In this document: in pieces, positions 2,035 to 18,749 of the stretch | Position numbering within the stretch: the stretch's first letter is position 1 | Layout of the letters: each line of letters starts with the position of its first letter | Assembly (NCBI GenBank): GCA_048058875.1 | Contig: JBLLNR010000005.1 | Span: forward strand, 48,615 to 112,614 | Length of the DNA: 64,000 nucleotides | Source of the DNA: Methylotenera sp. | GTDB lineage: Bacteria > Pseudomonadota > Gammaproteobacteria > Burkholderiales > Methylophilaceae | Reading direction: 5' to 3' | The notes under the pieces: model-generated | The model's database searches: none | Seen by the model: only the letters and a program-made list of their open reading frames with translations | Told to the model about the DNA's origin: nothing | Made by a program: the position numbers and the translations under genes

Positions 2035-2112
2035 GGTTGGCTGGCATGTATTTAGCTTATTCATATCAATTATCTCTATTTTGAATATCAAGCGACATGG
2101 CCAAATAACATC

Positions 2113-3336
2113 ATGATTAACTCCCTATCCTTTGCTCGTCACGGTGACAAACAGAACTCAGCATTTTTTGAAGAATATCTACAGCTCATTTTAGAAGACA
2201 GAGACCAACTTGGTCTCACCGAAATGGTACATGAAATTGACGCACTGATGATTACAGTTGACCCTGACAACTCCATCGAATATATCGCTGAGCTCTGTCT
2301 GATGACACCCTATCATTATCTGGTCACATTGGAGAGCGAGTCCCACTGGACACATATTCTACGCATCGATTTAAACTCACCTGATTTAATCGTGCGTGAA
2401 GTAAAAGATCCAAATTTCAGAGGTATCTTCCGCTCCTTAAATGAGATTTATCCTGTTGGTTCGCGTAAACCTAATAGCCGCTATATGGGGGAAATCATTC
2501 GTGTCACAAATAAACACGAAGTAGAAAAAATCCAGACTTCGCGCGAATTTAGATTTTTTAATCAAAATGATATTCGCAAACTAGAACTACCGGGTAATTT
2601 AGCCATCAGTAAACCATCACCCTACACGCACAATATCGTGGGTTATCTGGAGCGTAGTGTGGCTGATATTAGGGTGTATGCCCTTGGGATTAGCACCATA
2701 AGAGATGACGTGCAATCAGCCTATGAGAAAGCCAAAGAGCTACAAGAAAACTTAGGCATTCATGATTTAATTTTACCAGTTGATCACCTTGCCACACGCA
2801 TCTATAGCCAGAATAGAGAAGTTGCAATTCTTGAATATTTATCATTGTCCAGTTACCATTTTTGGGGTGCATATAATATTAAAGATCAAAACTCTTCAAC
2901 CAATGTCACTAAAAGCGTGCATGCAGTTCCTGAGTCAAAAAGTCCTGCTAAAGTCTTTACGGCTAACAACACGCCCTACTTCGTGAATCATTTAGAGAAG
3001 CTGCCATCGCCGACTGAAACATTCGTGCGTAATTATGGCCCTCGCCTGCACCACATGGCATTGGCAGTAAAAGATGGTGAACGAAATGGCATTGAGAATA
3101 TTGATTATGTAGTTAACTCCATTGCAGAACAAGGAAAAGGCTTCTTGTTAGATGTAATTGGATCAAAAGAACAAGGTCTAAAACAGATATTCTCCAATGC
3201 CTCTGAGCACTCCTCACTCATTATTGAATATGTTCAGCGCTATGGCGATTTTAATGGATTCTTTACCAAAGAAAACGTGGCAGCATTGACAGAAGCGGCA
3301 GGCGTTGAAGAGGGAGTCAGAGCTTTGGATGTTTAA
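2113..3336 (+). CDS. VOC-superfamily protein with a 4-hydroxyphenylpyruvate-dioxygenase-like C-terminal half (putative Fe(II) dioxygenase)
   Basis: Blocks VDHLATRI, GPRLHHMALAV and GLKQIFS..SLIIEYVQRYGDFNGFFTKENVAAL resemble the HPPD 2-His-1-Glu arrangement and the HPPD C-terminal LLQIFT..FFEIIQR..GFG.GNF motif. The N-terminal ~200 aa were not recognised. Confidence 0.5.
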   Translation: MINSLSFARHGDKQNSAFFEEYLQLILEDRDQLGLTEMVHEIDALMITVDPDNSIEYIAELCLMTPYHYLVTLESESHWTHILRIDLNSPDLIVREVKDPNFRGIFRSLNEIYPVGSRKPNSRYMGEIIRVTNKHEVEKIQTSREFRFFNQNDIRKLELPGNLAISKPSPYTHNIVGYLERSVADIRVYALGISTIRDDVQSAYEKAKELQENLGIHDLILPVDHLATRIYSQNREVAILEYLSLSSYHFWGAYNIKDQNSSTNVTKSVHAVPESKSPAKVFTANNTPYFVNHLEKLPSPTETFVRNYGPRLHHMALAVKDGERNGIENIDYVVNSIAEQGKGFLLDVIGSKEQGLKQIFSNASEHSSLIIEYVQRYGDFNGFFTKENVAALTEAAGVEEGVRALDV

Positions 3337-3409
3337 TACAACCATCGCAAAATACTGGCATAGTATTCGCTAGTTATTCCACAGAACATTGTGTAAGATA
3401 AAAACTAGA

Positions 3410-4858
3410 ATGAAAATATCCTCTATAGAATACGCCTCAATTCAAGCTTACGATGAGTTGCTTGACAAAAACTTGGTGCCACGAGATGTTGCGAAGCCCA
3501 TGCTAGATTACTTGGCATCACTAGATGAAGCCGAGCTAGCTGCTAGAAAACAAGCTGTTGATGCAGCCATTTTAGCCATGGGGATTACCTTCACAATCTA
3601 CTCCGACGCAGGCAATATAGATAGAGCGTGGCCTTTTGACATTGTGCCGAGGATCATCAGTAGTAAGGAATGGGACACGGTCCAAGAAGGTCTCAAACAG
3701 CGGCTAACAGCACTCAATATGTTTATTAACGACCTCTATAACAATCAAAAGATTGTAAAAGATGGTGTTTTCCCGATTGAAGTATTAAATGGCTCTAAGA
3801 ATTTCAGGGAACAGTGTATAGGCATTACGCCTCGTTTTGGTGCATGGGCGCATATATGCGGCACTGATTTGGTTAGAGATGATGATGGTACGATGTACGT
3901 GCTGGAAGATAACTTAAGAATTCCTTCTGGTGTATCTTATATGTTAGAGAACCGCCAGATTATGAAACGGGTTTTCCCCGAACTATTTCAAATCTCAAAT
4001 ATCAAACCGGTCGATAACTACCCCGCTATGCTATATAAAACGTTAGCAGCGTTATCACCACGTAAAAACAAATCCCCAGTCATCGTTGTGTTAACACCAG
4101 GCATTTATAACTCTGCATATTTTGAACACAGCTATTTAGCTGAGCAAATGAGTGCCAATCTAGCTGAAGGTTCTGATTTAGTAGTCGATGACAAAGACAT
4201 TGTCTATCTCAAAACAATCACTGGACTAGAACGAGTCGATGTCGTCTACCGCCGCGTTGATGATGACTTTATAGACCCAGAAGTATTTAACCCTGAATCA
4301 GTACTGGGCGTAAAAGGCCTGATGCGCGCATGGCGCAAAGGCAATGTAGCAATTGCTAATGCACCTGGTGCAGGCGTAGCTGATGATAAAGTAGTGTATA
4401 CCTTTGTCCCACAAATCATTAAATATTATCTTGACCAAGACCCAATCATCCAAAACGTACCAAGCTACTTGTGTATGTATGACGACCAACGTGATTACGT
4501 CCTGAAAAATTTAGATAAATTAGTCGTAAAGCCTGCCAATGAATCTGGCGGGTATGGCATGTTAATAGGCCCTCGAGCAAGCAAAAAAGAACGTGATCAA
4601 TTTGCTGACTTAATCCGTGCAAATCCACGTAATTACATGGCGCAACCTACGCTTAACATTTCTACTGGCCCAACCATTATCAATGGCCAACTGGCACCGC
4701 GCCATCTGGACTTACGCCCGTTTGTACTTCAATCAAATCAGCTTCATGTCACAATGGGTGGGTTAACACGCGTTGCGATGCGTCAAGGCTCATTGGTAGT
4801 CAACTCATCTCAAGGTGGTGGTAGTAAAGACACGTGGATTGTAGAAGGAGACAGCTAG
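3410..4858 (+). CDS. Circularly permuted ATP-grasp type 2 protein (DUF404/DUF407 amidoligase family)
   Basis: Family-typical blocks VLEDNLRIPSGVSYMLENR and VVKPANESGGYGMLIGP; ~480 aa; immediately followed by an alpha-E gene. The ORF track starts at a TTG at 3389; the ATG at 3410 (MKISSIEY) is the more likely start. Confidence 0.85.
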   Translation: MKISSIEYASIQAYDELLDKNLVPRDVAKPMLDYLASLDEAELAARKQAVDAAILAMGITFTIYSDAGNIDRAWPFDIVPRIISSKEWDTVQEGLKQRLTALNMFINDLYNNQKIVKDGVFPIEVLNGSKNFREQCIGITPRFGAWAHICGTDLVRDDDGTMYVLEDNLRIPSGVSYMLENRQIMKRVFPELFQISNIKPVDNYPAMLYKTLAALSPRKNKSPVIVVLTPGIYNSAYFEHSYLAEQMSANLAEGSDLVVDDKDIVYLKTITGLERVDVVYRRVDDDFIDPEVFNPESVLGVKGLMRAWRKGNVAIANAPGAGVADDKVVYTFVPQIIKYYLDQDPIIQNVPSYLCMYDDQRDYVLKNLDKLVVKPANESGGYGMLIGPRASKKERDQFADLIRANPRNYMAQPTLNISTGPTIINGQLAPRHLDLRPFVLQSNQLHVTMGGLTRVAMRQGSLVVNSSQGGGSKDTWIVEGDS

Positions 4859-4859
4859 T

Positions 4860-5795
4860 ATGATGCTTGCGCGCGATGCTGAAAACTTCTATTGGATGGC
4901 ACGATATCTTGAGCGAGCAGAAAACACTGCACGCTTGATTATTAAAATTACTGACACCTTATTAGACATGCCAACCGATGCCTCTATTGGCTGGAAAACT
5001 TTGTTACAGATTGTTGGCGTCGACCATCTCTACCATGAACATTACAAAATAGCCAAAGAAAATGACATTATTCATTTTTTGATTGCGGATGAGCGCAATC
5101 CTAGCTCAATTTTAGCCTGTATTAAATATGCTCGTGAAAACACCCGGACGTTAAGAGAGCTCTTACCAGAAGAACTCTGGGAGCGTGTAAACAGTTTGTA
5201 TTTATATATTTTAAGCAATATTGCTGAGACCTCGCAAAAAAGGCGTAAAAAATATGTTTTCCTACAAGAGGTTATCTACCGCAGACAGGCGATTATTGGT
5301 CTGATTTTTGGTGCTATGGAGCGTAATTTGCCCTATCATTTCATGAAGATGGGAAGAAATCTAGAGCGTGCTGACATGACAACAAGAATTATGGATGTCA
5401 ACTATGCAATTTCGCTACCAGAGAATCACCCGCTATACGAAGTAGCCAAAGAGACGCTTTGGGCAAGTATTTTGAAGTCTCTGTCAGGTTACCAAACCTA
5501 CAGGCGGCTGAAACACTTTCATGTGACCATGCCAGACGTCGTTGATTTTCTATTCAATGAAAAAAACTTTCCTCGCAGTATCTTACATTGTATCGGTGAA
5601 CTTGAAAATTGCTTGGTTGATATGCCTAATAATAAAGAAGTGCTTAAAACAGTCAGATTAGCGCAAAAATCTCTAGCGAAGAAAGATGAACAAAACATGA
5701 GCGAAGAGAAACTGCATGACCATATTGACCTTTCTCAGCAATTTATTGGTGATATCAATAATGCCATAACAAAACAGTACTTTAATAACAAATAG
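4860..5795 (+). CDS. Alpha-E domain protein (DUF403)
   Basis: The N-terminal LARDAENFYWMARYLERAENTARL is the hallmark alpha-E motif. It sits 2 bp after the ATP-grasp stop, which is the usual pairing. Confidence 0.85.
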   Translation: MMLARDAENFYWMARYLERAENTARLIIKITDTLLDMPTDASIGWKTLLQIVGVDHLYHEHYKIAKENDIIHFLIADERNPSSILACIKYARENTRTLRELLPEELWERVNSLYLYILSNIAETSQKRRKKYVFLQEVIYRRQAIIGLIFGAMERNLPYHFMKMGRNLERADMTTRIMDVNYAISLPENHPLYEVAKETLWASILKSLSGYQTYRRLKHFHVTMPDVVDFLFNEKNFPRSILHCIGELENCLVDMPNNKEVLKTVRLAQKSLAKKDEQNMSEEKLHDHIDLSQQFIGDINNAITKQYFNNK

Positions 5796-6520
5796 TGTCT
5801 TATAGCTTATCAATTCATACTGATGAAGGACTCGTCTTATGTGCCAGCACTGTCCTTGTACAAAGTACGGAAGGGACGCAACCAAGTACCAATATGCAAC
5901 GTTTCATCTGGCCAGGAGATCGTTTTGTCACAATCTTATCCTCTGGTAACCAGAAAACAATTGACAGTGTTTTAAATAAAATTCGTCAAGATTTAAATAC
6001 GCAATTACCTACAACACTGTTAACGCCTAACACCATGGATGAAATAGCAGACTATATTGCAGCTATCAGTGTCCAACAACAAAAAAATTTAATCCAGCAG
6101 TTCGGTGAAGATGAGGCGTACGAAGCTAATTTTATTGTGGCTGGTCAAATCGCTAACAAACAAATGGCAACATTGCTCATTTATGCTCAAGGTAATTTTA
6201 TTCATGAGCCCAACTCGTCACCATTTTTGCAAATTGGCGAAATCAAATATGGGAAACCGATTTTAGACCGCGTTATTAAACGAGATACGAATCTAAATAC
6301 CGCAGCGCATGCCGCATTTGTCTCTGTTGACTCTAACATCAAAAGTAATCCCAGTAACCTAATAAAAACTGAAATAATGATTTATAAAAAAGATAGTCTT
6401 GAAATAAGTGCTTACTTAGTCCTTGATAATAATGATGCTTTCTTTAAGAATACTTCTGCATCATGGAATCAAGGTGTTATTGGTGCGTTAGAGACCTTGC
6501 CAAAATTTTATTGGGAGTAA
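5795..6520 (+). CDS. Anbu-like proteasome-family paralogue with degenerate catalytic residues
   Basis: About 40% identical by eye to the next gene along its whole length (EGLVLC, ILSSGN, FIVAGQI, GKPILDR, LPKF.WE). It has Ser2/Ser18/Asn33 where the neighbour has Thr2/Asp18/Lys33. The GTG start overlaps the alpha-E stop. Confidence 0.65.
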   Translation: MSYSLSIHTDEGLVLCASTVLVQSTEGTQPSTNMQRFIWPGDRFVTILSSGNQKTIDSVLNKIRQDLNTQLPTTLLTPNTMDEIADYIAAISVQQQKNLIQQFGEDEAYEANFIVAGQIANKQMATLLIYAQGNFIHEPNSSPFLQIGEIKYGKPILDRVIKRDTNLNTAAHAAFVSVDSNIKSNPSNLIKTEIMIYKKDSLEISAYLVLDNNDAFFKNTSASWNQGVIGALETLPKFYWE

Positions 6521-6668
6521 CTAAAACGTAAACTAAAGTATATTTATTTCGTTAATTTACTTTTACAGTTTCACATTAATGAACTACTATTGCTGTTAAA
6601 CAAAAATAATTATAATTGCAAAACTTAAGAAGTAACGCAGAAGCTGCGTTCCCGGGGACTACTTAACA

Positions 6669-7439
6669 ATGACCTATTGTCTAGCCATAAATACAAATGA
6701 AGGTTTGGTGCTCTGCTCAGACTCAAGGACTAATGCAGGCTTTGATAATGTATCTACCTACAACAAAATGCATACATTTTCATGGCTAAACAATCGTTTT
6801 ATCACCATTTTGTCATCTGGTAACTTGGCTACCACACAACAAGTGCTAAAAAAAATACAAACTGATATTGATAAAGGTTTTTTGCCTAATTTACTCAGTG
6901 TTAATTCCATGCATGAGGCCATTGATTACATTGCCTCAGTGAGCACAACTATACAAAACGTACATGTTGTTCGTGATGCCAGTAATACCAGCTTTCAAGC
7001 AACGTTTATAGTCGCTGGTCAAATAGGCTCTGATAAACCAGAAACTTGTTTAATTTATCCTCAAGGTAATTACATTCATGAGTCAGACGAACATCCCTAC
7101 ATACAAATAGGCGAAACTAAATATGGCAAACCGATTCTAGATCGGATTATCAGTCGAGAAACATCGCTTAATAGGGCTGCTCGTTGTGCACTTGTGTCAA
7201 TGAACTCCACTATCCGAAGTAATCTTACAGTTGGCCCGCCAATTGATTTAATGCTCTATGAAAAAGATAGCCTAAGCGAGGGTAGAAAACTGCATTTAAC
7301 GGAAGATGATACTTTTGCAAAAGAGTTGGCAGAAAAATGGAATAATGGCTTAATTAACGCATTGATGAGCTTGCCTAAATTCGAATGGGAACAACAAGAT
7401 CAGCTTAATTCACAAAACATTCAACAAAACGTTAACTAA
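6669..7439 (+). CDS. Anbu-type bacterial proteasome homologue (Ntn hydrolase, ancestral beta-subunit family)
   Basis: The N-terminus MTYCLAINTNEGLVLCSDSRTNAG matches the Anbu signature: Thr directly after Met, DSRTNAG, and Lys33. It is genetically linked to cpATP-grasp, alpha-E and transglutaminase genes, as described for Anbu operons. Confidence 0.78.
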   Translation: MTYCLAINTNEGLVLCSDSRTNAGFDNVSTYNKMHTFSWLNNRFITILSSGNLATTQQVLKKIQTDIDKGFLPNLLSVNSMHEAIDYIASVSTTIQNVHVVRDASNTSFQATFIVAGQIGSDKPETCLIYPQGNYIHESDEHPYIQIGETKYGKPILDRIISRETSLNRAARCALVSMNSTIRSNLTVGPPIDLMLYEKDSLSEGRKLHLTEDDTFAKELAEKWNNGLINALMSLPKFEWEQQDQLNSQNIQQNVN

Positions 7440-7445
7440 ATTACT

Positions 7446-10400
7446 CTAATCTGCCAGCCATCTTAAATCTAAGGTGAGTGGAAATCTGGGGTTGCGTGTC
7501 TCTTGCTTGACTTCTAATTTACCAGGTTTATGACCATGCCCCCAGAAACGGGCAAAACGACGCGCTTCCGCTTCATTGGCATTCACAGGGAACGTGTCAT
7601 AGTTACGTCCACCTGGATGCGATACATGGTAAGTGCATCCCCCTATCGCCCTGCTACTCCAGGTATCAACCAAGTCAAACACCAAAGGTGCTTGTACTTT
7701 AATAGTAGGGTGCAAAGCCGACCATGGACTCCAAGCACGAAAACGAACACCTGCAACATACTCACCCACATTACCTGTCGGCTGCAATGGTAATGCCCGC
7801 CCGTTACAAGTAACAATATGACGCCCATCAGTGAGTCCTCTCACTCTTAGCTGCATCCTTTCCACTGATGAATCCACATAGCGCGCAGTACCACCACCAC
7901 TCATTTCTTCACCTAGTACGTTCCAAGGCTCAATTGCCTGACGTAATTCTAATTCTACACCTTGATAAGCAACGGTACCGAACCGGGGGAAGCGAAACTC
8001 AACAAAAGGATCAAACCAATGTTGCTCAAATCCATAGCCAAAATCTTGTAAATCAGTCACAACGTCTGCGATATCCTGAGCTACATAGTGCGGCAACATC
8101 CAGCGGTCATGCAGTTCGGTACCCCAATGAATCAATTTACCTTGATATGGCTCTTTCCAGAAACGAGCTACCAAAGCACGCAATAACAGGCTTTGTAGTA
8201 AACTCATACGCGCATGTGGCGGCATTTCAAATGCTCTAAATTCAACTAACCCCAATCTACCCGTTGGACCATCGGGAGAATAAAGTTTATCAATTGAAAA
8301 CTCAGCACGATGCGTATTACCCGTTAAATCAACTAGTAAGTTGCGTAACAAACGGTCTACCAACCATGGCCTTTTGCTCTCCTCAGTTTTAGGTAAGTTT
8401 TTTTCCATTTGCTGAAAAGCGATAGCTAGTTCATATAAATTATCATCACGTGCTTCATCAACTCGTGGTGCCTGACTAGTTGGTCCGATAAAAGTACCAG
8501 AAAATAAATAAGACAATGCTGGATGATTTTGCCAATAGGTAATTAAACTTTTTAATACATCTGGCCTTCTCAGCATTGGACTATCTTCAGCAGTAGCGCC
8601 GCCTAATGTTGCATGATTTCCACCCCCTGTACCAGTGTGACGCCCATCTAACATAAACTTCTCAGTTCCTAGTCGGCATAAACGGGCTTCTTCATACAAT
8701 GTCGTGACATTGTTAACCAGCTCTGACCACGAGTCAGCAGGATGGATGTTTACCTCAATGACACCTGGATCAGGTGTCACACTCAACATCTTAATCCGTG
8801 CGTCTCGCGGTGGCGTATAACCCTCTAGCCATAGCTTCAGTTTAAGGCTTGCTGCCGTATCCTCAATGACCCGTATCAGCATAAGATAATCATCTAACCG
8901 TTCCATGGGTGGCATAAAGACATGGAGCCGACCGTTTCTGACTTGTACACATAACGCCGTATGAATAACATCGCGGGGCAACGGTTTCTTTTGTTTACTT
9001 TTGACTTTTACTTTGATTGTAGAACTATCATTGCTGAGTTCCTCCTGCTGTTCAAAAGGATCAATAGCAAAATCGGGCTCCATCTCATCTGGCAACATCC
9101 ACGGCAGTGATTTCAATGGTAAACGCAGGCCCATTGGTGAATCCCCGCTTAGTAAGTATAAATGTTCACGCTTGAGCGGCCATTTACTAGTCAACCATTC
9201 AACATCATTTTTTTTGTCATTTGCCTTTTTGCGTTGACTGCTCTTAGCTGGCTTTATCGGCATTACATAACCGACAACTTCTTGTAGACCACGCTCTAGT
9301 AACCGAGCTAGACGACGTCTTTCTTCACTATCCTTCAAATCAACTTTTAAAGGATCTATGTTTTCTGGGAATTGCTCTTCTAAGTGTGCTAGTGCAACAA
9401 CATCTTCATAGGCAGGTATTAAGCAGGCTTTGGGGAAATCAAGCTTTTCAACTAAAGTATTTGCAAATAAGAGAGCATGCTCTGATGTGTAATTGTCTTT
9501 TACTTTTTCATCTGAAAACAGACTTTCATCACGCCAAATTGGTTTGCCGTCTATGCGCCAAAACATACTAATTGCCCAGCGTGGTAAAGGTTCACCAGGA
9601 TACCACTTACCTTGACCATAATGTAGCAGGCTACCCTTAGTAAAGTGCTGCTTTAATTTAATCGCTAACTCACCAGCAAGCTCACGCTTCTTTTTGCCAT
9701 GTGCCTCAGTATTCCATTCTGCACCTTCCATGTCATCAATTGACACAAAAGTAGGCTCTCCACCTTGTGTCAACCTGACATCTTGTTTTTTCAAATCACT
9801 ATCGACCTTTTTACCCAGTCGATCAATTTTCAACCAATCATCTTCTGAATATGGTTTCGTCACTCTTGGGTCTTCATGAATTCTGGTTATGGTCATTTCA
9901 TGATTAAATGTCACCTCTGCAATATCTGATAAACCCGTCACAGGTGCAGCGGATGAAGGTAGCGCAGTACAGGCTAACGGAATATGTCCCTCTCCTGCTA
10001 ATAAACCCGAAGTTGGGTCTAATCCAATCCAGCCAGCACCTGGAATGAAGACCTCTGCCCAAGCATGCAAATCCGTAAAATCTACCTTAGTGCCACTGGG
10101 GCCATCTAGGGCTTCTATATCTGCGGTTAATTGAATCAAATAACCAGAAACAAAGCGTGCAGCTAAACCTAAATGACGACATATTTGCACCAGCAGCCAA
10201 GCAGTATCGCGACATGAACCCGTTTTATTAGTAAGGGTTTCTTCAGGTGTTTGAATACCTGGCTCCATTCGCACCAAATAACCAATTTCCTTTTGCAGGG
10301 CTTGATTAACAGCAACTAAAAAATTAGCCGTACTCAAGTTTTGCGTAACAAGCTCTTTTTCAACTTTGGCAACCCAATCTTTTAATAATGGTTTCATTGG

Positions 10401-10763
10401 GTCTGGCTTCAAATATGCACTCAGCTCAAACTCCTGCTGATCGGTATATTTAAAAGGGAAATGCTCAGCATATTTCTCAACAAAAAAATCAAACGGATTG
10501 ATAACGGTCATATCTGCTACTAAATCGACCGTAAATTCTAATTCTTGCACCTTTTCGGGGAATACATACCGCGCTATATAGTTCCCATAAGGGTCTTGTT
10601 GCCAATTAATAAAATGCTTTTTGGGAGTAACAGTTAACGAGTAAGATAATATAGGCGTACGTGCGTGTGATGCTGGTCTCAGGCGAACCTCATGTGGGGA
10701 CAAGCTTACCAAACGATCAAACTTGTAGCTGGTTTTATGATGCAATGCAACGCGAATAGCCAT
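7446..10763 (-). CDS. Large transglutaminase-family protein (N-terminal Bact_transglu_N + transglutaminase core + DUF2126-like C-terminal region)
   Basis: Cys-His-Asp core: GSCRDTAWLL, DLHAWAEVF, GLDPTSG. The 1105-aa architecture is typical of DUF2126 proteins. Convergent with the Anbu gene; only 6 bp separate the two stop codons. Confidence 0.85.
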   Translation of the reverse strand: MAIRVALHHKTSYKFDRLVSLSPHEVRLRPASHARTPILSYSLTVTPKKHFINWQQDPYGNYIARYVFPEKVQELEFTVDLVADMTVINPFDFFVEKYAEHFPFKYTDQQEFELSAYLKPDPMKPLLKDWVAKVEKELVTQNLSTANFLVAVNQALQKEIGYLVRMEPGIQTPEETLTNKTGSCRDTAWLLVQICRHLGLAARFVSGYLIQLTADIEALDGPSGTKVDFTDLHAWAEVFIPGAGWIGLDPTSGLLAGEGHIPLACTALPSSAAPVTGLSDIAEVTFNHEMTITRIHEDPRVTKPYSEDDWLKIDRLGKKVDSDLKKQDVRLTQGGEPTFVSIDDMEGAEWNTEAHGKKKRELAGELAIKLKQHFTKGSLLHYGQGKWYPGEPLPRWAISMFWRIDGKPIWRDESLFSDEKVKDNYTSEHALLFANTLVEKLDFPKACLIPAYEDVVALAHLEEQFPENIDPLKVDLKDSEERRRLARLLERGLQEVVGYVMPIKPAKSSQRKKANDKKNDVEWLTSKWPLKREHLYLLSGDSPMGLRLPLKSLPWMLPDEMEPDFAIDPFEQQEELSNDSSTIKVKVKSKQKKPLPRDVIHTALCVQVRNGRLHVFMPPMERLDDYLMLIRVIEDTAASLKLKLWLEGYTPPRDARIKMLSVTPDPGVIEVNIHPADSWSELVNNVTTLYEEARLCRLGTEKFMLDGRHTGTGGGNHATLGGATAEDSPMLRRPDVLKSLITYWQNHPALSYLFSGTFIGPTSQAPRVDEARDDNLYELAIAFQQMEKNLPKTEESKRPWLVDRLLRNLLVDLTGNTHRAEFSIDKLYSPDGPTGRLGLVEFRAFEMPPHARMSLLQSLLLRALVARFWKEPYQGKLIHWGTELHDRWMLPHYVAQDIADVVTDLQDFGYGFEQHWFDPFVEFRFPRFGTVAYQGVELELRQAIEPWNVLGEEMSGGGTARYVDSSVERMQLRVRGLTDGRHIVTCNGRALPLQPTGNVGEYVAGVRFRAWSPWSALHPTIKVQAPLVFDLVDTWSSRAIGGCTYHVSHPGGRNYDTFPVNANEAEARRFARFWGHGHKPGKLEVKQETRNPRFPLTLDLRWLAD

Positions 10764-10840: not shown

Positions 10841-11107
10841 TTATGCCATTGTTACTACTATAGCGCGCTTCTCAGATACAGGTAGTTTTTTAATCATATA
10901 TTCAGCCTTTGAGGCCTCAGAACGGTTACTAAATGCTATCACTTTAAGTAATCTTTTAGGCGGGTGTGCTCTCATGTATTTAGCACCTTTACCCGTTTCA
11001 TGTGCCTTATAGCGCTTTGCAACATCCACAGTAATACCAGTGTATATGCTGCCGTCTTGGCATTCAATCAAATATAAAAACCATGGTTTGTTTAGATTGT
11101 CTGACAT
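10841..11107 (-). CDS. GIY-YIG domain protein (YhbQ/UPF0213-like)
   Basis: WFLYLIECQDGSIYTGITVDVAKRYKAHETGKGAKY is the GIY-YIG / YhbQ pattern; 88 aa. Confidence 0.8.
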   Translation of the reverse strand: MSDNLNKPWFLYLIECQDGSIYTGITVDVAKRYKAHETGKGAKYMRAHPPKRLLKVIAFSNRSEASKAEYMIKKLPVSEKRAIVVTMA

Positions 11108-11148
11108 TTTTAAACTATGAGCGAATAAGATGTATGAAGCAAGTTAGA

Positions 11149-11225
11149 TGGTACCCCCGACGCGATTCGAACGCATGACCTTCCCCTTAGGAGGGGGACG
11201 CTCTATCCATCTGAGCTACGAGGGC
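11149..11225 (-). tRNA. tRNA-Arg (anticodon CCU)
   Basis: The reverse complement, GCCCTCGTAGCTCAGATGGATAGAGCG-TCCCC-CTCCTAA-GGGGA-..GGTTCGAATC..GGGGGTACCA, folds as a cloverleaf. The anticodon loop is CUCCUAA, and CCA is encoded. Confidence 0.9.
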
Positions 11226-11262
11226 AATAAATGCTGTGGAATTTTGTGTATTGTAAATTCAT

Positions 11263-12282
11263 TCAATACAACCAAGTACCATCGCCTAGCAAATCGGCAT
11301 GACAGTCTTTATTGGGAACATTGCAGTTTTCCCACCAAGTATCAAGCACTTGCTGTGACCACCCAAATACATAATCCATATGTAATGAGTAACCTCCTCG
11401 ACCGCCTTTATAATTATCGCTGGCAATGCGAAGGTTTTCTGTGCCGTTTACTTTATAGTGAATTATACCCGATATATGTGGCAGTGCCTTTGGGTGTGTT
11501 GCAGGGCATCGACCATTTGAGTCATATGCCATATGCGCTTTATGACTGGGACTATCCAGATTTTCACCATCCCAACAGCTAGGGAAGTGCACGACTGCAG
11601 TTAAATCTCCTACACAATCAGGAATGTAATTTTTTCTTAATTTATATGCGACACCACCTAATTTACCGGCGTTGCATTGCCAATTGATCTTATCCCAGTT
11701 CTGTGGGTTATCCTCTGTTGCGGTATGATCGCCTGCAATCATCATTAATCCATTTGGTGGTTTAACGTCGCCCCCTTTGTAATAGAATAAAGCCCAATCA
11801 GGTTTGAGCGGAGTACCATCTTTGGTGTCAATCAAGCTCGGCAACCAATAAGATGAACGATTAGCAATACCACCCTGACAGGTGCTATTACCAGTCTTTC
11901 TTATACTGTCAGCTGTAGCGTTGAAATACGCACCTGTATTCCCAAAAAAGGTGTGGTGATGAGCAGCACCCTCCTGATTTGGGTAAACAATAAAATCATC
12001 ATTCGCCATATGGCTAGCAGCACAGTGAATGCGAAAATCTCCGCCAGAAAAACTAAAGGGATTTGGTGTAAAAACTTCTCTAGTAGGGTCTGGCACAGGT
12101 TGCACTCTTAATTCAGCATACCCTTCTGCAGGTTTCATGTTCTTAGTTGTATCCACTGCAGGCATATAGTCTTCAGTTTGCGTTGGGGCAACTGTATTTT
12201 GTGATGAGCCAACAGAGCTACACGCAGAAATGGTAACGCCAGCTATGGCAGATACTATTTTAAGTACACGGTAATTTTCCAT
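11263..12282 (-). CDS. Lipoprotein with a DUF1996-like domain
   Basis: Signal peptide plus lipobox (AGVTISAC). FRIHCAASHMANDDFIVYPNQEGAAHHHTFFGN matches the DUF1996 FR..C...DPIV.PG...H.H.F.G pattern. Confidence 0.5.
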   Translation of the reverse strand: MENYRVLKIVSAIAGVTISACSSVGSSQNTVAPTQTEDYMPAVDTTKNMKPAEGYAELRVQPVPDPTREVFTPNPFSFSGGDFRIHCAASHMANDDFIVYPNQEGAAHHHTFFGNTGAYFNATADSIRKTGNSTCQGGIANRSSYWLPSLIDTKDGTPLKPDWALFYYKGGDVKPPNGLMMIAGDHTATEDNPQNWDKINWQCNAGKLGGVAYKLRKNYIPDCVGDLTAVVHFPSCWDGENLDSPSHKAHMAYDSNGRCPATHPKALPHISGIIHYKVNGTENLRIASDNYKGGRGGYSLHMDYVFGWSQQVLDTWWENCNVPNKDCHADLLGDGTWLY

Positions 12283-12447: not shown

Positions 12448-12927
12448 CTAGCTAGTGGATAAATGTTGAATGATAGACTCTAAAACAGCATCATTAAACT
12501 GATATGGGTTAAATGAACTGAGCTTATGTTGTTGCAATATCGCCTGAATGTCAGAACCAACACCAGCATACTTCATATACCATTTGGCAAAAGATTTTTG
12601 ATGGATACGTTTATTACTTAATATCTTGATGTCAGTATGTCTAGTATCTTTTTTGAGTACATCAATCAACTCAGTGATTTCGTCAATACCGCCTTGTAGG
12701 CATTGTAGGCATTGTAGGCATTGTAGGCATTGTAGGCATTGTAGGCATTGTAGGCATTGTAGAAAATAACCGTTACCAAAGCACAAAACACCTACAAGGC
12801 GTTTATTTCTATTATTGGCTCTGGCCTTTTCCAAAATATCAGCGACTTCTGGCTCTATTTGATAAGGGTTCGCTGATAACGGAAAAGTTGCACGACTCGT
12901 ATAAACAATTTGGGTGTAATAATCCAT
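12448..12927 (-). CDS. Stand-alone BLUF (blue-light sensor using FAD) protein with an internal (CLQ)n insertion
   Basis: BLUF landmarks are present: the Tyr in IVYTSRA, GVLCFGNGYFLQ-CLQG (equivalent to FFQWLEG of AppA), DTRHTDIKIL and FAKWYM. It lies 4 bp downstream of the GGDEF-EAL gene on the same strand. Confidence 0.85.
   Translation of the reverse strand: MDYYTQIVYTSRATFPLSANPYQIEPEVADILEKARANNRNKRLVGVLCFGNGYFLQCLQCLQCLQCLQCLQCLQCLQGGIDEITELIDVLKKDTRHTDIKILSNKRIHQKSFAKWYMKYAGVGSDIQAILQQHKLSSFNPYQFNDAVLESIIQHLSTS
12694..12762 (-). repeat. Perfect 9-bp tandem repeat (TTGTAGGCA on +; TGCCTACAA = Cys-Leu-Gln on the coding strand), 7 full copies plus a 6-bp partial
   Basis: Counted directly: units start at 12694, 12703, 12712, 12721, 12730, 12739 and 12748, with a partial unit at 12757-12762. 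It is in frame and gives FLQ(CLQ)7GG. Confidence 0.95.
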
Positions 12928-12931
12928 AAGA

Positions 12932-15364
12932 TTAAATCACTCTTTCGTAAACTGGCTTTTCACCTCTTTTTAATTTATTTTGAGTAAAACACATCTTTTC
13001 TAAATCAACAGCTGATAGTGGCTTTGAAAATAGATAGCCTTGTCCATAATCACAGCCTATAGCAAATAGTAGGTTGCGCTGCTCTATTGTTTCCACACCT
13101 TCAGCAATTACTTTTAAACCAAGTTTATGTGCCATGACAATAATCGCTTCGCATAAAACAAGATCTTCAGAATAAATAGACAGGTTTTGTACAAATGACT
13201 GATCGATTTTGATGTAATCAACATCAAACTTTTTCAAGTAAGAGAGTGATGAGTAGCCTGTCCCAAAATCATCAACCGCTACTTGTATACCTTGATCCCT
13301 GAAAGCTAACAGCTTTTCACTAACCTCAGGGTTTTTATCCAGCATGAGTCCTTCTGTGATTTCAATTACCAGACTTGAACCAGAAATACCAAGCTTTTCT
13401 AGATGTTTAAACCAGCCTAGGTGTTTCTCATCTTTATTATAAAATTGCACTGGCGATTTATTGATACTGACTTGAAACTTACTATCAATTGTATTTTGCC
13501 ATTTTGCGAGCTGATCAGCCACCTTGTAAAACACCCAATTACCAATATCAACAATTAAACCAGTATCTTCTGCCACTGGGATAAAATCACCGGGACTTAC
13601 AACACCGTATTGAGGATGATCCCAGCGTAGTAAAGCTTCTGCCTTATATATTTTATTGGTCGCTAAATCAATAATAGGCTGATACATGACTCTGAATTGC
13701 TCTTCTTGTATCGCTAGACGTAGGTCTTGTGTCATCTCACGACGTTTAACTGCTGCAACTTGCATCGCTCTAGTGAAATAGCTGTAGGTGTTACGGCCTT
13801 TATTTTTTGCGTTATACATCGTTTGATCTGCATTACGGATAAGTGATTCAACATCCGTTGCATCCTCAGGAAACAATGTAATACCAATACTGGCAGAAAC
13901 ATTAGCAACTTCATGGCCCAAATTGAATGGTTTACCCAATTCAGACAAGATACGTTGCGCTACCATATCAATATTACCTATGTCGTCAAACTGACTCAAA
14001 ATAATCGTGAACTCATCACCACCAAGTCTGGCAAGGTCTCCATCATGAGAAATCGTGTCTGTTACGCGTAAACAAGCTTTTAATCTCTCACCAACTTGCT
14101 TTAATAAAACATCACCAAAGTCGTGGCCCAAACTATCATTCACTTCTTTAAAATCATCTAGGTCAAGAAACATGAGCGCAAATGAACCGCCTGCTCTCTT
14201 ACATACCTCAACCTGATTTGACAGTTTTTCATGGAACATATGCCGATTGGGCAAGCCAGTAACAGAATCAAAATTGGCTTGCCTCCACATCCATTCTTCT
14301 GCTTGTTTCTTAGCTGAAATATCAGACGCTACTGATACATAACCAGTCACTAAGCCATCAGTTCCTTTAAGTGGACTTACTTGAATAGCTACAGGTAAAA
14401 GCTTTCCATCTTTCGCCAAAAGTTTTATTTCACCCCGAAAACTATCGTGTTCTTTAACTGTTTCAAAAATTTCTGCATGGCTTGGACCAGAATCATCTTC
14501 TGGACTATCTGGTCCTAAATAAAATGGTTTACCAATCAACTCTGCAGACTTGTATCCAAATAAAGATTCGAATGCTGGGTTTACATATAGAAAACACAAG
14601 TTCTCATCATGTAACGAAATGGCTTCTTGCGTTTGGGATAGCGCTTGATCGCTTTGACGCAACTTAGAGTCACGATACTCAATTCGCGATAACATCAAAT
14701 TAAATCCATCTGTTAGTTTTCCAAGCTCATCCTCTGAAGTTTTTTCTACCCGAAGTGAGTATCGTTCTTGATCAATAATCTGACTCATAGCATTTGTTAA
14801 TGAGTCAACAGGCGCAAGCATCTGTTTGAGTATGGTGCGCAAGAACATATACCCCAGCAAGAACGCAATTATCATCCCCAATAAGTTGGTAGCTACCCTT
14901 AAGATAACACCCTGATAGACATTATCGTAATCGGCATAAACTCTAATTGTCCCAACCCGCTGGTTGTCTTGAATGATTGGCCGCTCGATAAACATCTCAT
15001 CGTATAGAGAAGTACCATGCAACCAATACTTCATATGATGCTTTTGATTGACGAATGAAACAAATAAGTCACTATTCGCATCCAACACCTCAACGCGCAA
15101 GACTGAGCTATCTGCTTGGATTGCTTGTAGTGTTTCTTTTGCCGTATCTAAATCATCAAAAATAATCGCAGATGCAATATTATGCGAAATAACATCTGCC
15201 AGTGTGACTAGGCTTTCCTTTGCTGACTCACTGGCGCTTTTAGCATCATTGATTGTAGAAATTACAAATGCAAGAAGTACAACAAGACCAGCCGTCCCAG
15301 AAACAAGCAGCATAAACTTTCTACTAATTGACCATTTAGTCAATAGGTTAAACACTGATAGCAC
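12932..15364 (-). CDS. Membrane c-di-GMP turnover protein: CHASE8-like periplasmic domain, HAMP, PAS, GGDEF, EAL
   Basis: Two TM segments flank a region with IASAIIFDDLDTAKETLQAIQADSSVLRVEVLD (CHASE8-like). PAS block: LYVNPAFESLFGYKSAELIGKPF. Intact RLGGDEF. Intact EAL set: KAEALLRW, DDFGTGYSSL, IKIDQSF, EGVET. Confidence 0.85.
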   Translation of the reverse strand: MLSVFNLLTKWSISRKFMLLVSGTAGLVVLLAFVISTINDAKSASESAKESLVTLADVISHNIASAIIFDDLDTAKETLQAIQADSSVLRVEVLDANSDLFVSFVNQKHHMKYWLHGTSLYDEMFIERPIIQDNQRVGTIRVYADYDNVYQGVILRVATNLLGMIIAFLLGYMFLRTILKQMLAPVDSLTNAMSQIIDQERYSLRVEKTSEDELGKLTDGFNLMLSRIEYRDSKLRQSDQALSQTQEAISLHDENLCFLYVNPAFESLFGYKSAELIGKPFYLGPDSPEDDSGPSHAEIFETVKEHDSFRGEIKLLAKDGKLLPVAIQVSPLKGTDGLVTGYVSVASDISAKKQAEEWMWRQANFDSVTGLPNRHMFHEKLSNQVEVCKRAGGSFALMFLDLDDFKEVNDSLGHDFGDVLLKQVGERLKACLRVTDTISHDGDLARLGGDEFTIILSQFDDIGNIDMVAQRILSELGKPFNLGHEVANVSASIGITLFPEDATDVESLIRNADQTMYNAKNKGRNTYSYFTRAMQVAAVKRREMTQDLRLAIQEEQFRVMYQPIIDLATNKIYKAEALLRWDHPQYGVVSPGDFIPVAEDTGLIVDIGNWVFYKVADQLAKWQNTIDSKFQVSINKSPVQFYNKDEKHLGWFKHLEKLGISGSSLVIEITEGLMLDKNPEVSEKLLAFRDQGIQVAVDDFGTGYSSLSYLKKFDVDYIKIDQSFVQNLSIYSEDLVLCEAIIVMAHKLGLKVIAEGVETIEQRNLLFAIGCDYGQGYLFSKPLSAVDLEKMCFTQNKLKRGEKPVYERVI

Positions 15365-15373
15365 CCCTAATCT

Positions 15374-15799
15374 CTACATTCGTTGTTGAGTACCATTGCT
15401 ATCGACTTTAGTTTTTGCATAGAGTCGCTCGCCGTCGGTTTTTAACATCGCTTTATTATAAGCCTCATTTACGACATTTCCGCCAACTTCTACTCTAGCC
15501 CTCAATAAGTTTGCATTCGAAGCTTTTTTGTAGTCATTGTATACATCCATGGCAAGTAGTTCACCTATGGGTTTAGCCACGATTATTGCTAACTCTGCGG
15601 TTGTAATCTCTATTGATAATGAGAAATTTGAAGTTCGCTTAGTTAACATCATTTTGTGTTTCGCGGGTTGATAATGTTCAGAAATAAAGAAAGCAATGAT
15701 AAGCAGTGGAGTAAGCAAGAAAATAATCCAAAGGTTCTCTAAAAACGTCCGCTTACATTTGGCAAACCATGACTCATCCTTGTTTAATATCGAACTCAT
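15374..15799 (-). CDS. Small single-pass membrane protein, unknown function
   Basis: One hydrophobic segment (LWIIFLLTPLLIIAFFI). It has a 4-bp ATGA overlap with the upstream YfiR-like gene, and its stop is 9 bp before the GGDEF-EAL start, suggesting an operon. Confidence 0.45.
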   Translation of the reverse strand: MSSILNKDESWFAKCKRTFLENLWIIFLLTPLLIIAFFISEHYQPAKHKMMLTKRTSNFSLSIEITTAELAIIVAKPIGELLAMDVYNDYKKASNANLLRARVEVGGNVVNEAYNKAMLKTDGERLYAKTKVDSNGTQQRM

Positions 15800-16338
15800 T
15801 TTAACCCCTTCACGCGTTTAGCCAACTTCAATAACTGCGAACTCATATGAAGCCCACTTGCCTTGACTACAGCTATGTCCACTTCAAAACCTACTCGATT
15901 TCCATCTCTTATTAAGCCAACCATGCCACCCTCGTTAATAAAATCTTTCCTGTCACTTACTGTGAGAATTGGTACTTTTTTAAGCTCTTTTAAAATAAGC
16001 TTTGCGTTACGCACACCTTCATTAGCAATAAATAGAATCTGACACTCTTTAAAATTGTTATTTTTTATTGCTCGGCGCAATACAATTGGTCTACCGTTCG
16101 TTAACTTGTCATACAAAGCCTCTAGAGCCCCATTTAAATTATCGTCACCAACAATGCAAAAATTAAATTTTTCATCTTGATAGGCGTGATTTGGCCAAAT
16201 CACAAATTTAGTGATGTTATAGATTAGCCCAGCCTTTACAGCGTGCTCTTTAGTCACAGCCGCTGCAATAGTAGAAGCAACGACAAGTATGCTAAATAAA
16301 ATAGTCTGTAAGTAATGGTGAATTCTTTTACTGTTCAT
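15796..16338 (-). CDS. YfiR/DUF4154-like periplasmic protein
   Basis: Signal peptide followed by VKAGLIYNITKFVIWPN, which is the DUF4154 'kaaflynfakfveWP' motif. First gene of the operon that ends with the BLUF gene. Confidence 0.6.
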   Translation of the reverse strand: MNSKRIHHYLQTILFSILVVASTIAAAVTKEHAVKAGLIYNITKFVIWPNHAYQDEKFNFCIVGDDNLNGALEALYDKLTNGRPIVLRRAIKNNNFKECQILFIANEGVRNAKLILKELKKVPILTVSDRKDFINEGGMVGLIRDGNRVGFEVDIAVVKASGLHMSSQLLKLAKRVKGLK

Positions 16339-16944: not shown

Positions 16945-18749
16945 TTATTTTTGTCGAATTAACTCTACTCGACGATTTTGCGCATTACCCGTTATTGGAT
17001 CATTTTCTGCGATAGGCATTGAGAAACCATATCCTTTGACTGTCATGCGTTTTTCGTCTATGCCTTTTCTGATTAGATAATCACTAACAGCTTGTGCTCG
17101 ACGTTCTGATAATCGCTGGTTATAGTCAGCATCAGAAGTATTGCGTTTATCCGTGTGCCCAGCAACCTCAACAGCAGAACTTCCCCATTCAACCAGAGTT
17201 TTATAGGCATTATCCAATACTGGGAATGACTCTGTCTTAATGATTGCACTGTTGGTTTCAAATTGCACATCAGGAATAACTTTATCTGCTAGGACTACTT
17301 TTTCTGCTTCTTTATTAGCCAACATTTTTTGATTTGCTACGCTTAGCGGTTCGGCATTAGCAACAATACTTGCCTTATCAATTTTAACCATTTCAGGCGC
17401 CACTGCCTGACAGACCGCATAGTTTTCGTTATAGTCTGCTTTACCAAGATCGGGCAAATCACCCCGCACAACTTCTAGCTTAGACAATAAGTTGCCCTCA
17501 CCTGCATAGGTTCTTGCATAAGCAGTATGCAAATCACTTTCAGTATTTGTATAGGTGCGCCTTGCTTGAAAATATTCGTTTTCTGTATCGAGTAAGTCTA
17601 GCAAGGTTCTTTGACCAATATCAAACTGCTTATGATAAGCTTCTCTTGCTTTTTCAATAGAAAGCTGATGCTGATTGCGATAAGTCAATTGTTCGGTTAG
17701 GCTAATGACATCATTGTAAGCGATGGCTACTGTTTGGCGTGTGTCAATACAAGCTTTATCTCTTAAATCATATGATCGGTTCAAGTTCTCCGCGGATTGT
17801 GCAATACCTGCCTGATCTGAAAACCCATTGAATAAATTAAATGTAGCAGTTAATTCCACCATATCAGCAGCGAGACTACTATTCCTTTCGTCAGAACTAA
17901 CATCTAAATTTTTTCTGGCTTGCAAATCCAGTCTAGGATAATACCTACCCTTCCTACCGCGCACCTCCTGTTGAGTTGCGACAATATTTTCTATTGCGGA
18001 AAGTAAGTCTGGGTTTTTTTGATAAGCAAGCTCTAATGATTTATTTGCATCTGAAGCCAAGCCTTCTGTTAAAAAGTTGACAGGTACTAAATTTTCTGGA
18101 GGCAACTCACCCGTTAACCTTTGAAAGCGTGCCGTCACGTTTTGTAAGTTGGTCATCTCTGTCAATAAGTTCGCTTCTGCTAATGCTAGACGACCACTCG
18201 CTTGTTCTAAATCAACCCTGCGTGCAATACCTGCTTGAACACGTTGCTCGATACGCTCAAATAGTTGCTTATGTACAGCATAATTACTTTCTGCATACTT
18301 TTGTAATTGTCGGAACCGTCTTACATCAACATATGCTCCTATCGTCTCTAGGCAATACGCTGCATGGCACCTTGAAGCTCATAGTACCTTACACGTGCGG
18401 CATGATCTAACCTATTGACTTCACTTGGCGTTGCAAAGCCATCGAACAACATTTGACGTAATACTAAATCAGTTTGACTATTTGGCGTTTGTGTATTGCC
18501 GATATTAGGTGTTAATCGTTCATAACTCCCAAATCGGGAAATAATATCAGCATGCGGATAGTACCCCCCTTTTACAACCTTTTGTTCTTGTAAAGCTGCT
18601 TTATAAGTGTGAAAACTGGCCTGCACTTCTGGGTTTGTCGTAATGGTTTTTTGGACAATTTCTTTTAAAGTATCAGGTACTTCTGCATAGGCAAAAGGTG
18701 TTACCAAAAGCAGTGCATACGTAATAACCTCCCTCAAGCGTTTATACAT
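16945..18749 (-). pseudogene. TolC-family T1SS outer-membrane protein with a C-terminal OmpA-like peptidoglycan-binding domain, interrupted by a single frameshift (LapE-like)
   Basis: The N-terminal ORF (18348-18749) has a signal peptide and TolC-like repeats and ends ..YYELQGAMQRIA*. The frame of ORF 16945-18165 is open upstream and reads LETIGAYVDVRRFRQLQ.. directly from the stop. Restoring one base at ~18348-18353 gives ..RIALETIGAY... The C-terminus VAGHTDKRNTSDADYNQRLSERRAQAV...NRRVEL is an OmpA_C domain. Confidence 0.7.

Follow-up and report, generated by a model that had tools for sequence, protein, structure and literature searches.

The Anbu operon has been known since 2008, and crystal structures of the Anbu protein are available; it has yet to be assigned a substrate, an activity, or a physiological role. 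This report concerns a variant of that system encoded at positions 2042-10763 of a 64-kb stretch of DNA, hereafter referred to as the window, which was taken from a metagenome-assembled genome of Methylotenera sp. (Methylophilaceae). In the operon as described, four genes encode an ATP-grasp protein, Alpha-E, a small transglutaminase, and Anbu (Piasecka 2018, PMC6376114). Anbu itself has been said to be the product of one gene and to contain only active subunits (Valas and Bourne 2008). Both of its subtypes, Anbu-1 and Anbu-2, form homo-oligomers, and the particle is a split-ring assembly of dimers that amounts to a dodecamer (Fuchs 2017, PMC5666114). A 2021 survey of proteasome homologues, which recognized members by the active-site residues that they conserve, makes no mention of inactive Anbu paralogues.

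The variant in the window has much in common with the canonical Anbu operon (P. aeruginosa PA1733 region, Y. bercovieri; Valas and Bourne 2008, Fuchs 2017, Piasecka 2018), namely a circularly permuted ATP-grasp protein, Alpha-E, an Anbu-1-type subunit with Thr1, Asp17, and Lys32, the order and direction of these genes, and a regulation that is probably tied to nitrogen status. It differs in that no small transglutaminase lies between Alpha-E and Anbu and in that two Anbu proteins are encoded, one of which, to judge from its residues, is catalytically dead. In addition, the window contains a head gene for a protein with the HPPD fold, designated here ORF2 (open reading frame 2), and a convergent gene for a giant transglutaminase-DUF2126 protein. 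An earlier note on the same DNA had singled out this gene set as atypical. In a survey of gene neighborhoods the exact arrangement was indeed not the common form, nor was it described in the literature that was searched. Literature searches on DUF2126, on COG2308/2307, and on Anbu together with dioxygenase or glyoxalase returned nothing relevant. Both the clade of dead Anbu proteins with its living intermediates and the widespread, conserved HPPD-fold partner appear to be undescribed in that literature; Iyer et al. 2009 lay outside its scope, so an earlier mention of the oxygenase is possible.

Organization of the locus

The module consists of a sigma54-type element, ORF2, the genes for the circularly permuted ATP-grasp protein, Alpha-E, and two Anbu paralogues, and the convergent transglutaminase-DUF2126 gene (Table 1). 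All six genes were found at the positions and on the strands reported in the earlier note. For the ATP-grasp gene, the mechanically derived reading frame begins with a TTG at 3389, and the public gene call on the identical contig begins with an ATG at 3410, which corresponds to a protein of 482 residues. The tight, co-directional block from 2113 to 7439 is as had been observed. Specifically, a spacer of 73 bp separates ORF2 from the ATP-grasp gene, and the ATP-grasp and Alpha-E genes are 1 bp apart with both Pfam domains encoded side by side. The Alpha-E stop codon and the GTG start codon of the first Anbu gene, ORF5, share one nucleotide (TAGTG, a gap of -1 bp), and an AT-rich spacer of 148 bp lies between ORF5 and the second Anbu gene, ORF6. 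The products of these two genes are referred to as AnbuA' and AnbuB, respectively. The stop codon of ORF6 is positioned 6 bp from that of the convergent gene, whose product of 1105 residues displays a transglutaminase core with Cys-His-Asp (motifs GSCRD, HAWAEV, and D) and a DUF2126 part that is a putative amidoligase.

Neither Pfam nor tblastn revealed a small transglutaminase in the block or in the rest of the window, and a tblastn search of the window for additional ATP-grasp, Alpha-E, Anbu, and transglutaminase genes found none. As previously claimed, the sole transglutaminase nearby is the giant one with DUF2126, encoded on the opposite strand. The canonical order of ATP-grasp, Alpha-E, small transglutaminase, and Anbu is not followed, with a second Anbu gene located after that for Alpha-E. 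The transglutaminase-DUF2126 gene is convergent in all of the loci with the window layout that reach that far, even where the flanks are different (L006), and gammaproteobacterial loci show it linked in different gene orders. We read the region as a single functional module, a variant of the Anbu/circularly permuted ATP-grasp/Alpha-E/transglutaminase system that belongs to the large transglutaminase-DUF2126 subfamily.

The two Anbu paralogues

ORF6 matches the crystallized Anbu proteins over its full length, with E-values of 1.5e-66 for 5loy and 8.2e-58 for the P. aeruginosa protein (5lox); the structures 5nyw, 5nyj, and 5nyf were also matched. Its score against the Pfam Proteasome family (PF00227) is 26.7 bits, the cut-off being 22.4. 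The N-terminus, MTYCLAINTNEGLVLCSDSRTNAGFDNVSTYNKM, places Thr1 directly after the initiator methionine with no propeptide, and both Asp17 and Lys32 are present. The S1 pocket, formed by T20, Y30, S48, L52, and T55, is close to the Anbu-1 pocket (compared with Fuchs 2017).

No Pfam match was obtained for ORF5. It matches the same Anbu structures, with an E-value of 2.5e-39 for 5loy, from residues 3 to 241, a span that includes the C-terminal helix region, and it can be aligned with ORF6 without gaps at 45% identity. These matches bear out the assignment of both proteins to the Anbu family in the earlier note. After the initiator methionine, ORF5 reads SYSLSIHTDEGLVLCASTVLVQSTEGTQPSTNM, such that Thr1, Asp17, and Lys32 are replaced by Ser1, Ser17, and Asn32. 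The degeneracy that had been claimed for the upstream copy is thus evident, and by its residues ORF5 is an Anbu homologue and a predicted non-catalytic member of the family.

A survey of the Anbu residues in the 120 best database relatives, together with the two window proteins, revealed a clade of 38 full-length sequences with neither Asp17 nor Lys32/33; 73 others carry the canonical Thr, Asp, and Lys. In the degenerate clade residue 1 is usually Ser, with Thr, Pro, or Val in some sequences. A total of 110 positions reach at least 80% conservation in this clade versus 136 in the canonical relatives, and 79 are identical between the groups. The losses cluster at residues 17-33 (active-site strand and loop), 53-57 (LATTQ pocket segment), and 186-191 (LTVGPP segment), whereas the region of the C-terminal helix is kept. 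According to the 2021 survey of proteasome homologues, this helix joins the two layers of the Anbu particle.

A comparison of ORF5 with its closest sequenced relative (L017) gave nonsynonymous (dN) and synonymous (dS) substitution rates of 0.125 and 1.0, respectively, and a dN/dS ratio of 0.12. The ratios for six other genes, again the window versus L017, fall between 0.010 and 0.034. ORF5 is therefore under purifying selection, yet it evolves approximately ten times faster than its neighbors. A pseudogene was considered and rejected on the basis of the dN/dS value. By its sequence, AnbuA' is neither a pseudogene nor a catalytic Anbu.

In a neighbor-joining tree, all of the upstream copies (AnbuA) form one clade, which is sister to a group comprising the downstream AnbuB copies and Gallionella-like relatives. 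Within the AnbuA clade there is a graded series at positions 1, 17, and 32. At its intact end are the T/D/K copies of L006 and L012, followed by copies in which the Lys has been lost (T/D/N in P0187 and T/D/R in L018), and finally by the fully degenerate copies of the window, L002, L005, L007, L010, and L017. An intact Anbu gene adjoins the degenerate copy in every locus that extends far enough (L001, L002, L007, L010, and L017).

Paired Anbu genes with both copies intact are found outside the AnbuA clade as well. The order in L089 is transglutaminase-DUF2126, ATP-grasp, Alpha-E, Anbu, and Anbu. In L172 the ATP-grasp and Alpha-E genes are followed by two intact Anbu genes, an order also seen within the clade in L006 and L012. 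L090 and the gammaproteobacterial locus L085 have ATP-grasp, Alpha-E, and Anbu, then a small transglutaminase gene on the opposite strand and a second Anbu gene, with ORF2 closing the cluster on its downstream side. Both also carry the large transglutaminase-DUF2126 gene, positioned between the second Anbu gene and ORF2 in L090 and at the cluster head in L085. Thus, a second Anbu directly behind Alpha-E is recurrent in the DUF2126-associated subfamily.

No description of these two-Anbu clusters from related Beta- and Gammaproteobacteria (L089, L090, L172, L085, L006, and L012) was found in the searched literature. They share with the window the ATP-grasp/Alpha-E/Anbu subfamily (Anbu is 62-68% identical in L089-L091), the paired Anbu genes after Alpha-E, the large transglutaminase-DUF2126 gene, and, in L090, L085, L006, and L012, ORF2. 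They differ in that both Anbu copies retain Thr1, Asp17, and Lys32, in that a small transglutaminase is present in L090 and L085, and in that ORF2 is located at the tail rather than at the head. The occupation of the transglutaminase slot by a second Anbu, which had been regarded as unusual, is therefore normal for the subfamily; what is specific to the window lineage is the catalytic death of AnbuA together with the absence of a small transglutaminase nearby.

Fold and genomic linkage of ORF2

ORF2 by itself yielded no Pfam, NCBIfam, or PDB sequence match. A phmmer search of 1.84 billion cluster representatives at E-values of 1e-3 or below returned only 257 of them and did not reach the true HPPDs. 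The ORF2 family is therefore small and is not joined to the HPPDs by sequence. The family alignment of 19 diverse members reveals the conserved motifs DH(225).ATR, (H)H(314).A, GLKQ(358)IFS, E(372)Y.QR, and N(388)V..L. The profile matches glyoxalase, methylmalonyl-CoA epimerase, and HPPD/hydroxymandelate synthase entries at 5e-4 to 3e-3, the E-value for the HPPD/hydroxymandelate synthase entries being only 1e-3, and a Pfam Glyoxalase_4 match was obtained for 11 of the 19 members. The motifs align to IDH, QHIAF, LYQIF, and ELIER of hydroxymandelate synthase (7yvv), motifs that in the HPPD family carry the iron ligands, two His and one Glu. Across the ORF2 family H225, H314, and E372 vary little or not at all, and on the basis of this alignment His225, His314, and Glu372 are the putative Fe(II) ligands of ORF2.

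An AlphaFold2 (AF2) model calculated with the diverse alignment has a predicted local distance difference test (pLDDT) score of 92.6 and a predicted template modeling (pTM) score of 0.91. The diverse alignment was required; 19 close homologues (81-96% identical) gave a pLDDT of 33.7. When the model was submitted to Foldseek, the top 50 PDB matches were all HPPDs or hydroxymandelate synthases, with E-values down to 2.5e-17, TM-scores of 0.6-0.7, and sequence identities of 12-15%. ORF2 has the fold of these enzymes, a two-barrel VOC architecture with a C-terminal helix, and a conserved His-His-Glu triad. The profile and the AF2/Foldseek results thus uphold the HPPD-like character and the triad that had been ascribed to the head gene. 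As for the earlier label of Fe(II)-dioxygenase-like, the fold and the metal site stand, whereas membership in the HPPD family at the level of sequence does not. In addition to the fold, ORF2 shares the motifs DH, HH.A, and EY.QR with HPPD and hydroxymandelate synthase; it differs in its low identity, in a shorter segment between the second His and the Glu, and in its Anbu context as opposed to tyrosine catabolism. An ordinary HPPD was considered for ORF2 and rejected given the low identity, the lack of a Pfam match, and the wrong context.

For the linkage scan, one genome per GTDB species was searched with a closer alignment of eight sequences, the 19-sequence set being too divergent. At least 594 species encode a relative of ORF2. 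The best 80 of these at least 594, with identities of 75-98%, belong to the Methylophilaceae, the Gammaproteobacteria, and one zetaproteobacterium; the gammaproteobacterial carriers among these best 80 are methanotrophs, Chromatiaceae, Ectothiorhodospiraceae, Thiohalobacteraceae, Acidihalobacter, and Tenderia. The loci were classified by BLAST against the window proteins. Layout A, that of the window, is ORF2, ATP-grasp, Alpha-E, Anbu, and Anbu in one direction with a convergent transglutaminase-DUF2126 gene, and it was observed in five species genomes and two incomplete contigs. Layout B, found in approximately 25 Methylotenera-type genomes, is ATP-grasp, Alpha-E, small transglutaminase, ORF2, and Anbu. 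In layout C (Methylophilus), ORF2 lies by a small transglutaminase gene, a fused ATP-grasp-Alpha-E gene (~850 residues), and a transglutaminase-DUF2126 gene, and layout D (Methylobacillus and Methylovorus) is like B with no directly adjoining Anbu gene. Several further gene orders surround ORF2 in the Gammaproteobacteria.

The Methylophilus loci L014, L019-L021, and L027 are of a mycobacterial type. They resemble the window in their large transglutaminase-DUF2126 protein, which is 74-81% identical, and in the adjacent ORF2; they differ in the fusion of ATP-grasp to Alpha-E and in having no adjacent Anbu gene. The corresponding M. tuberculosis cluster presumably comprises transglutaminase-DUF2126, a fused circularly permuted ATP-grasp-Alpha-E protein, and a small transglutaminase.

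A gene of the system lies within 10 kb of ORF2 in 68 of the 76 evaluable loci, a count that is somewhat inflated because short contigs were included when linked. In the 34 loci in which the small transglutaminase gene directly precedes ORF2, the median gap between the stop codon of the former and the start codon of the latter is 20 bp. ORF2 is 75-100% identical across the loci, far above its partners, and its dN/dS ratio is 0.012. Indeed, in the small-transglutaminase-type operons of other Methylophilaceae (layouts B and D), the ATP-grasp, Alpha-E, and Anbu proteins share only 47-50%, 29-33%, and 36-43% identity, respectively, with their counterparts in the window. The HPPD-like gene is at the head of the block, as had been noted, but it is not an atypical element; rather, ORF2 is a widespread, recurrent partner of these systems and not a local addition.

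Two different ATP-grasp/Alpha-E systems flank a single ORF2 gene in L031, L033, and L072. One is unfused and has a small transglutaminase, and the other has the fused ATP-grasp-Alpha-E protein of ~850 residues, accompanied in L031 and L033 by transglutaminase-DUF2126. One oxygenase-like protein may therefore serve both systems.

A distant ORF2 subfamily, with proteins of ~390 residues that are 31-33% identical to ORF2 and in some cases carry an N-terminal zinc ribbon, is common in sediment and hypersaline metagenomes (L092-L171). No conserved neighborhood was observed for this subfamily in 80 metagenome loci, the best neighbor being present in 11.

A conserved sigma54-type element

The 78-bp gap that separates uup from ORF2 contains the element TGGCATGTATTTAGCT, in which the distance from GG to GC is that of sigma54 -24/-12 promoters. 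It is the sole match to TGGCAYRNNNNTWGCW in the window; the background of the sigma54 pattern is 0.007 per 400 nt. The same element is found ahead of ORF2 in 13 of 13 window-layout loci of the Methylophilaceae and is kept in L006, L012, and L015 despite a different upstream gene. For layouts B and D, the form TGGCAY-N5-TTGCA occurs upstream of the ATP-grasp gene in 13 loci. From its sequence and spacing, TGGCATGTATTTAGCT would be expected to act as a promoter.

In P. putida, the Anbu and ATP-grasp homologues are upregulated 16- to 22-fold on nitrate versus ammonium (PMC8050072, Table 2), and they have been reported to be induced more than any other genes when nitrogen is limiting (PMC3235984, note added in proof).

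A sigma54-like sequence, TTGGCATRTATCCTGCT, is located ~45-65 nt upstream of the transglutaminase-DUF2126 ATG in L006, L015, and L018, which suggests co-regulation of both arms of the module. In the window lineage a GIY-YIG gene lies directly upstream of the large gene, where the relatives have TTGGCATRTATCCTGCT.

The spacer between the Anbu genes contains a possible internal promoter of the sigma70 type (Table 1). Its TTTACA and TACTAT hexamers are kept in L001, L002, L007, and L017; sigma70-type consensus matches are not commoner than in shuffled sequences. A hairpin, AACGCAGAAGCTGCGTT, at 6636-6652 of the same spacer is not conserved. A generic scan for promoters and terminators gave fewer sites than in shuffled sequences and no terminator between the genes.

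Other features of the window

The coordinates of the module and of the remaining features are listed in Table 1. A signaling cluster for cyclic di-GMP (c-di-GMP) on the minus strand, 12448-16338, adjoins the module and is syntenic in L002 and L004. It is followed by a Lap-type biofilm adhesin system at 16945-37756. The adhesin repeats appear as opposite-strand shadow reading frames every ~630 bp, a period that exceeds the 500-base limit of the repeat finder. The tRNA gene overlaps the start of a mechanically derived plus-strand reading frame at 11148-11582.

Table 1 Features of the window, with positions numbered from its first nucleotide
Feature	Coordinates	Strand	Remarks
sigma54 (RpoN)-type -24/-12 element, TGGCATGTATTTAGCT	2042-2057	+	56 nt upstream of the ORF2 ATG
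ORF2, HPPD/hydroxymandelate synthase-fold, two-domain VOC protein	2113-3336	+	407 aa
Circularly permuted ATP-grasp ligase, COG2308 type	3410-4858	+	PF14403 1.3e-163; PF04174 7.3e-138
Alpha-E, COG2307 type	4860-5795	+	PF04168 5.5e-80
AnbuA' (ORF5), degenerate Anbu paralogue	5795-6520	+	GTG start; Anbu structures 2.5e-39
Possible internal sigma70-type promoter, TTTACA-17-TACTAT	6562-6590	+	consensus match in Anbu spacer; weak
AnbuB (ORF6), canonical Anbu-1-type	6669-7439	+	Anbu structures 1.5e-66; PF00227
Transglutaminase-DUF2126 large protein, convergent	7446-10763	-	1105 aa; Pfam Bact_transglu_N, Transglut_core, DUF2126
Small GIY-YIG gene	10841-11107	-	
tRNA-Arg(CCT)	11149-11225	-	between GIY-YIG and DUF1996 genes
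DUF1996 gene	11263-12282	-	
BLUF blue-light sensor	12448-12927	-	
CHASE8-HAMP-PAS-GGDEF-EAL protein	12932-15364	-	
Unannotated ORF	within 12448-16338	-	141 aa
YfiR/HmsC-like protein	15796-16338	-	
OEP-OmpA outer-membrane protein	16945-18165	-	
LapD-like c-di-GMP receptor	19706-21622	+	
RTX/Big_9 adhesin	22157-33346	-	3729 aa; ~630-bp internal repeats
LuxR-type regulator, HlyD protein, C39-ABC exporter	33454-37756	-	

Discussion

The following scheme can be put forward for the module. The five co-directional genes, ORF2 through AnbuB, would be transcribed from the sigma54 promoter with a start near 2068-2070, and induction would probably be brought about by nitrogen limitation, as for the P. 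putida Anbu operon. AnbuA' would cleave nothing; having kept the fold and the C-terminal helix, it would assemble with the catalytic AnbuB into a mixed particle and serve as a scaffold or a substrate-selecting subunit, analogous to the alpha or the inactive eukaryotic beta subunits of the proteasome. ATP-grasp and Alpha-E presumably act as one unit because they are fused in related loci, and together with transglutaminase-DUF2126 they would form amide or isopeptide bonds, or rearrange existing ones, on a substrate that is either a peptide or a small nitrogen-rich compound. Anbu would then hydrolyze the amide- or isopeptide-bonded product, and ORF2, with the help of Fe(II) and O2, would convert an intermediate of the 2-oxo-acid type in this pathway. 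We place the scheme as a whole, that is, a sigma54-driven module for the formation or remodeling of amide bonds, hydrolysis by a mixed A'/B particle, and oxidation of a 2-oxo-acid-type intermediate by ORF2, slightly on the favorable side of an even chance. A more far-reaching version, in which Anbu in this subfamily is an obligate two-paralogue A/B particle whose A subunit became, recently and in a Methylotenera lineage, an alpha-like scaffold with no catalytic role and in which ORF2 is an integral enzyme of the pathway, is put forward only tentatively, the chances being rather against it.

A mixed A'/B particle would have a parallel in the 20S proteasome, with its alpha and beta subunits and its inactive eukaryotic beta subunits. 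In both cases a catalytic subunit is accompanied by a paralogue that has kept the fold and is without the Thr1/Asp17/Lys33 machinery. The likeness is an analogy only, however, in that the duplication in the window is recent, falls inside the Anbu family, and has brought no N-terminal gating helix.

Several observations weigh against the scheme. The -12 box of the promoter reads TAGCT and not TTGCW, no NtrC-like or other enhancer-binding activator site was recognized upstream of ORF2, and the large convergent gene is without a recognizable sigma54 element in the window lineage. The rate at which AnbuA' evolves, roughly tenfold that of its neighbors, also fits relaxed constraint once function has been lost. 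In 8 of the 76 evaluable loci ORF2 has no link to the system, and its distant subfamily is unlinked in all 54 metagenome loci of at least 8 kb; the association thus belongs to the proteobacterial ORF2 clade and not to the whole family. Finally, no biochemical function is known for any Anbu system, and purified Anbu displayed no peptidase activity and formed no stable complex with its operon partners (PMC6376114; PMC5666114).

Two alternatives survive best, although each seems improbable to us. The first is that the module is biosynthetic rather than degradative, as proposed by Iyer et al. 2009 (cited in PMC5666114), and that it builds a small modified peptide or amide metabolite. ATP-grasp and DUF2126 would then be the ligases, processing would fall to the transglutaminase and Anbu acting as peptidases, and tailoring to ORF2 as an oxygenase. 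Two predicted amidoligases do occur together in the module, enzymes with the HPPD/hydroxymandelate synthase fold such as hydroxymandelate synthase act in natural-product pathways (2r5v and 7yvv were among the Foldseek matches), and Anbu is without general peptidase activity in vitro. The block, however, contains no gene for a precursor peptide, an exporter, or immunity, the induction of the P. putida homologues by nitrogen limitation suggests turnover or scavenging, and Fuchs 2017 see in the binding of inhibitors and the ring-like arrangement of the active sites an argument for protein degradation.

The second alternative, to which we give about the same low weight, is that AnbuA' has taken on a separate, new role and stays apart from AnbuB; it might be a substrate-binding adaptor, an inhibitor, or an enzyme in which Ser1 is put to another use. 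That Ser is the commonest residue 1 in the clade speaks for it, as do the clade-specific conserved Q52, I55, and D56 (mature numbering) and the NM.RF motif, all of which differ from canonical Anbu, and the possible internal promoter would let AnbuB be expressed separately. Position 1 is not a conserved nucleophile, however, given that it is occupied by Pro or Val in some members. Furthermore, the structural core and the C-terminal helix that build the Anbu particle are retained, and AnbuA' is always encoded beside an intact paralogue.

It is decidedly unlikely that ORF2 is an independent metabolic enzyme, acting for example in the catabolism of aromatic 2-oxo acids, that is merely adjacent to the system. 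Such an enzyme could account for the unlinked loci and the unlinked distant subfamily, for a conservation much higher than that of the system genes, and for the pairing of ORF2 with two different system subfamilies. Yet the linkage survives at least four gene orders across the Beta- and Gammaproteobacteria, ORF2 sits inside the operon at the short median gap given above, the conserved sigma54 element precedes ORF2 and not the ATP-grasp gene, and neither Pfam nor the public gene call placed homogentisate-pathway genes next to it. Least likely of all is that AnbuA' is a functionless, decaying duplicate on its way to a pseudogene with only AnbuB of importance, since the loss of all three key catalytic residues, the dN of about ten times that of the neighboring genes, the hypervariable 17-32 loop with its insertions and deletions, and the split or shortened copies in some relatives (L015; 209-residue forms) are opposed by a dN/dS ratio far below 1, an intact reading frame in the 38 full-length clade members down to ~50% identity with the 110 conserved positions, a start codon that overlaps the Alpha-E stop codon, and the presence of the gene in every window-layout locus that extends far enough.

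The locus and its relatives provide three leads. A second Anbu paralogue, possibly non-catalytic, has been included in no published reconstitution; the very conserved Fe(II)-oxygenase-like partner narrows the candidate chemistry; and the conserved putative sigma54 promoter suggests an inducing condition. If the more far-reaching version is true, the Anbu substrate contains or yields a 2-oxo acid, and missing partners could explain the inactivity of purified Anbu in vitro. The locus would then repeat, on a small scale and in a form that can be dated, the event from which the alpha and beta subunits of the proteasome are believed to have arisen, with the intact, half-degenerate, and fully degenerate stages of the A subunit all present in living relatives. 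This series from intact to dead Anbu within one bacterial family constitutes a natural experiment on how a homo-oligomeric protease could acquire non-catalytic subunits.

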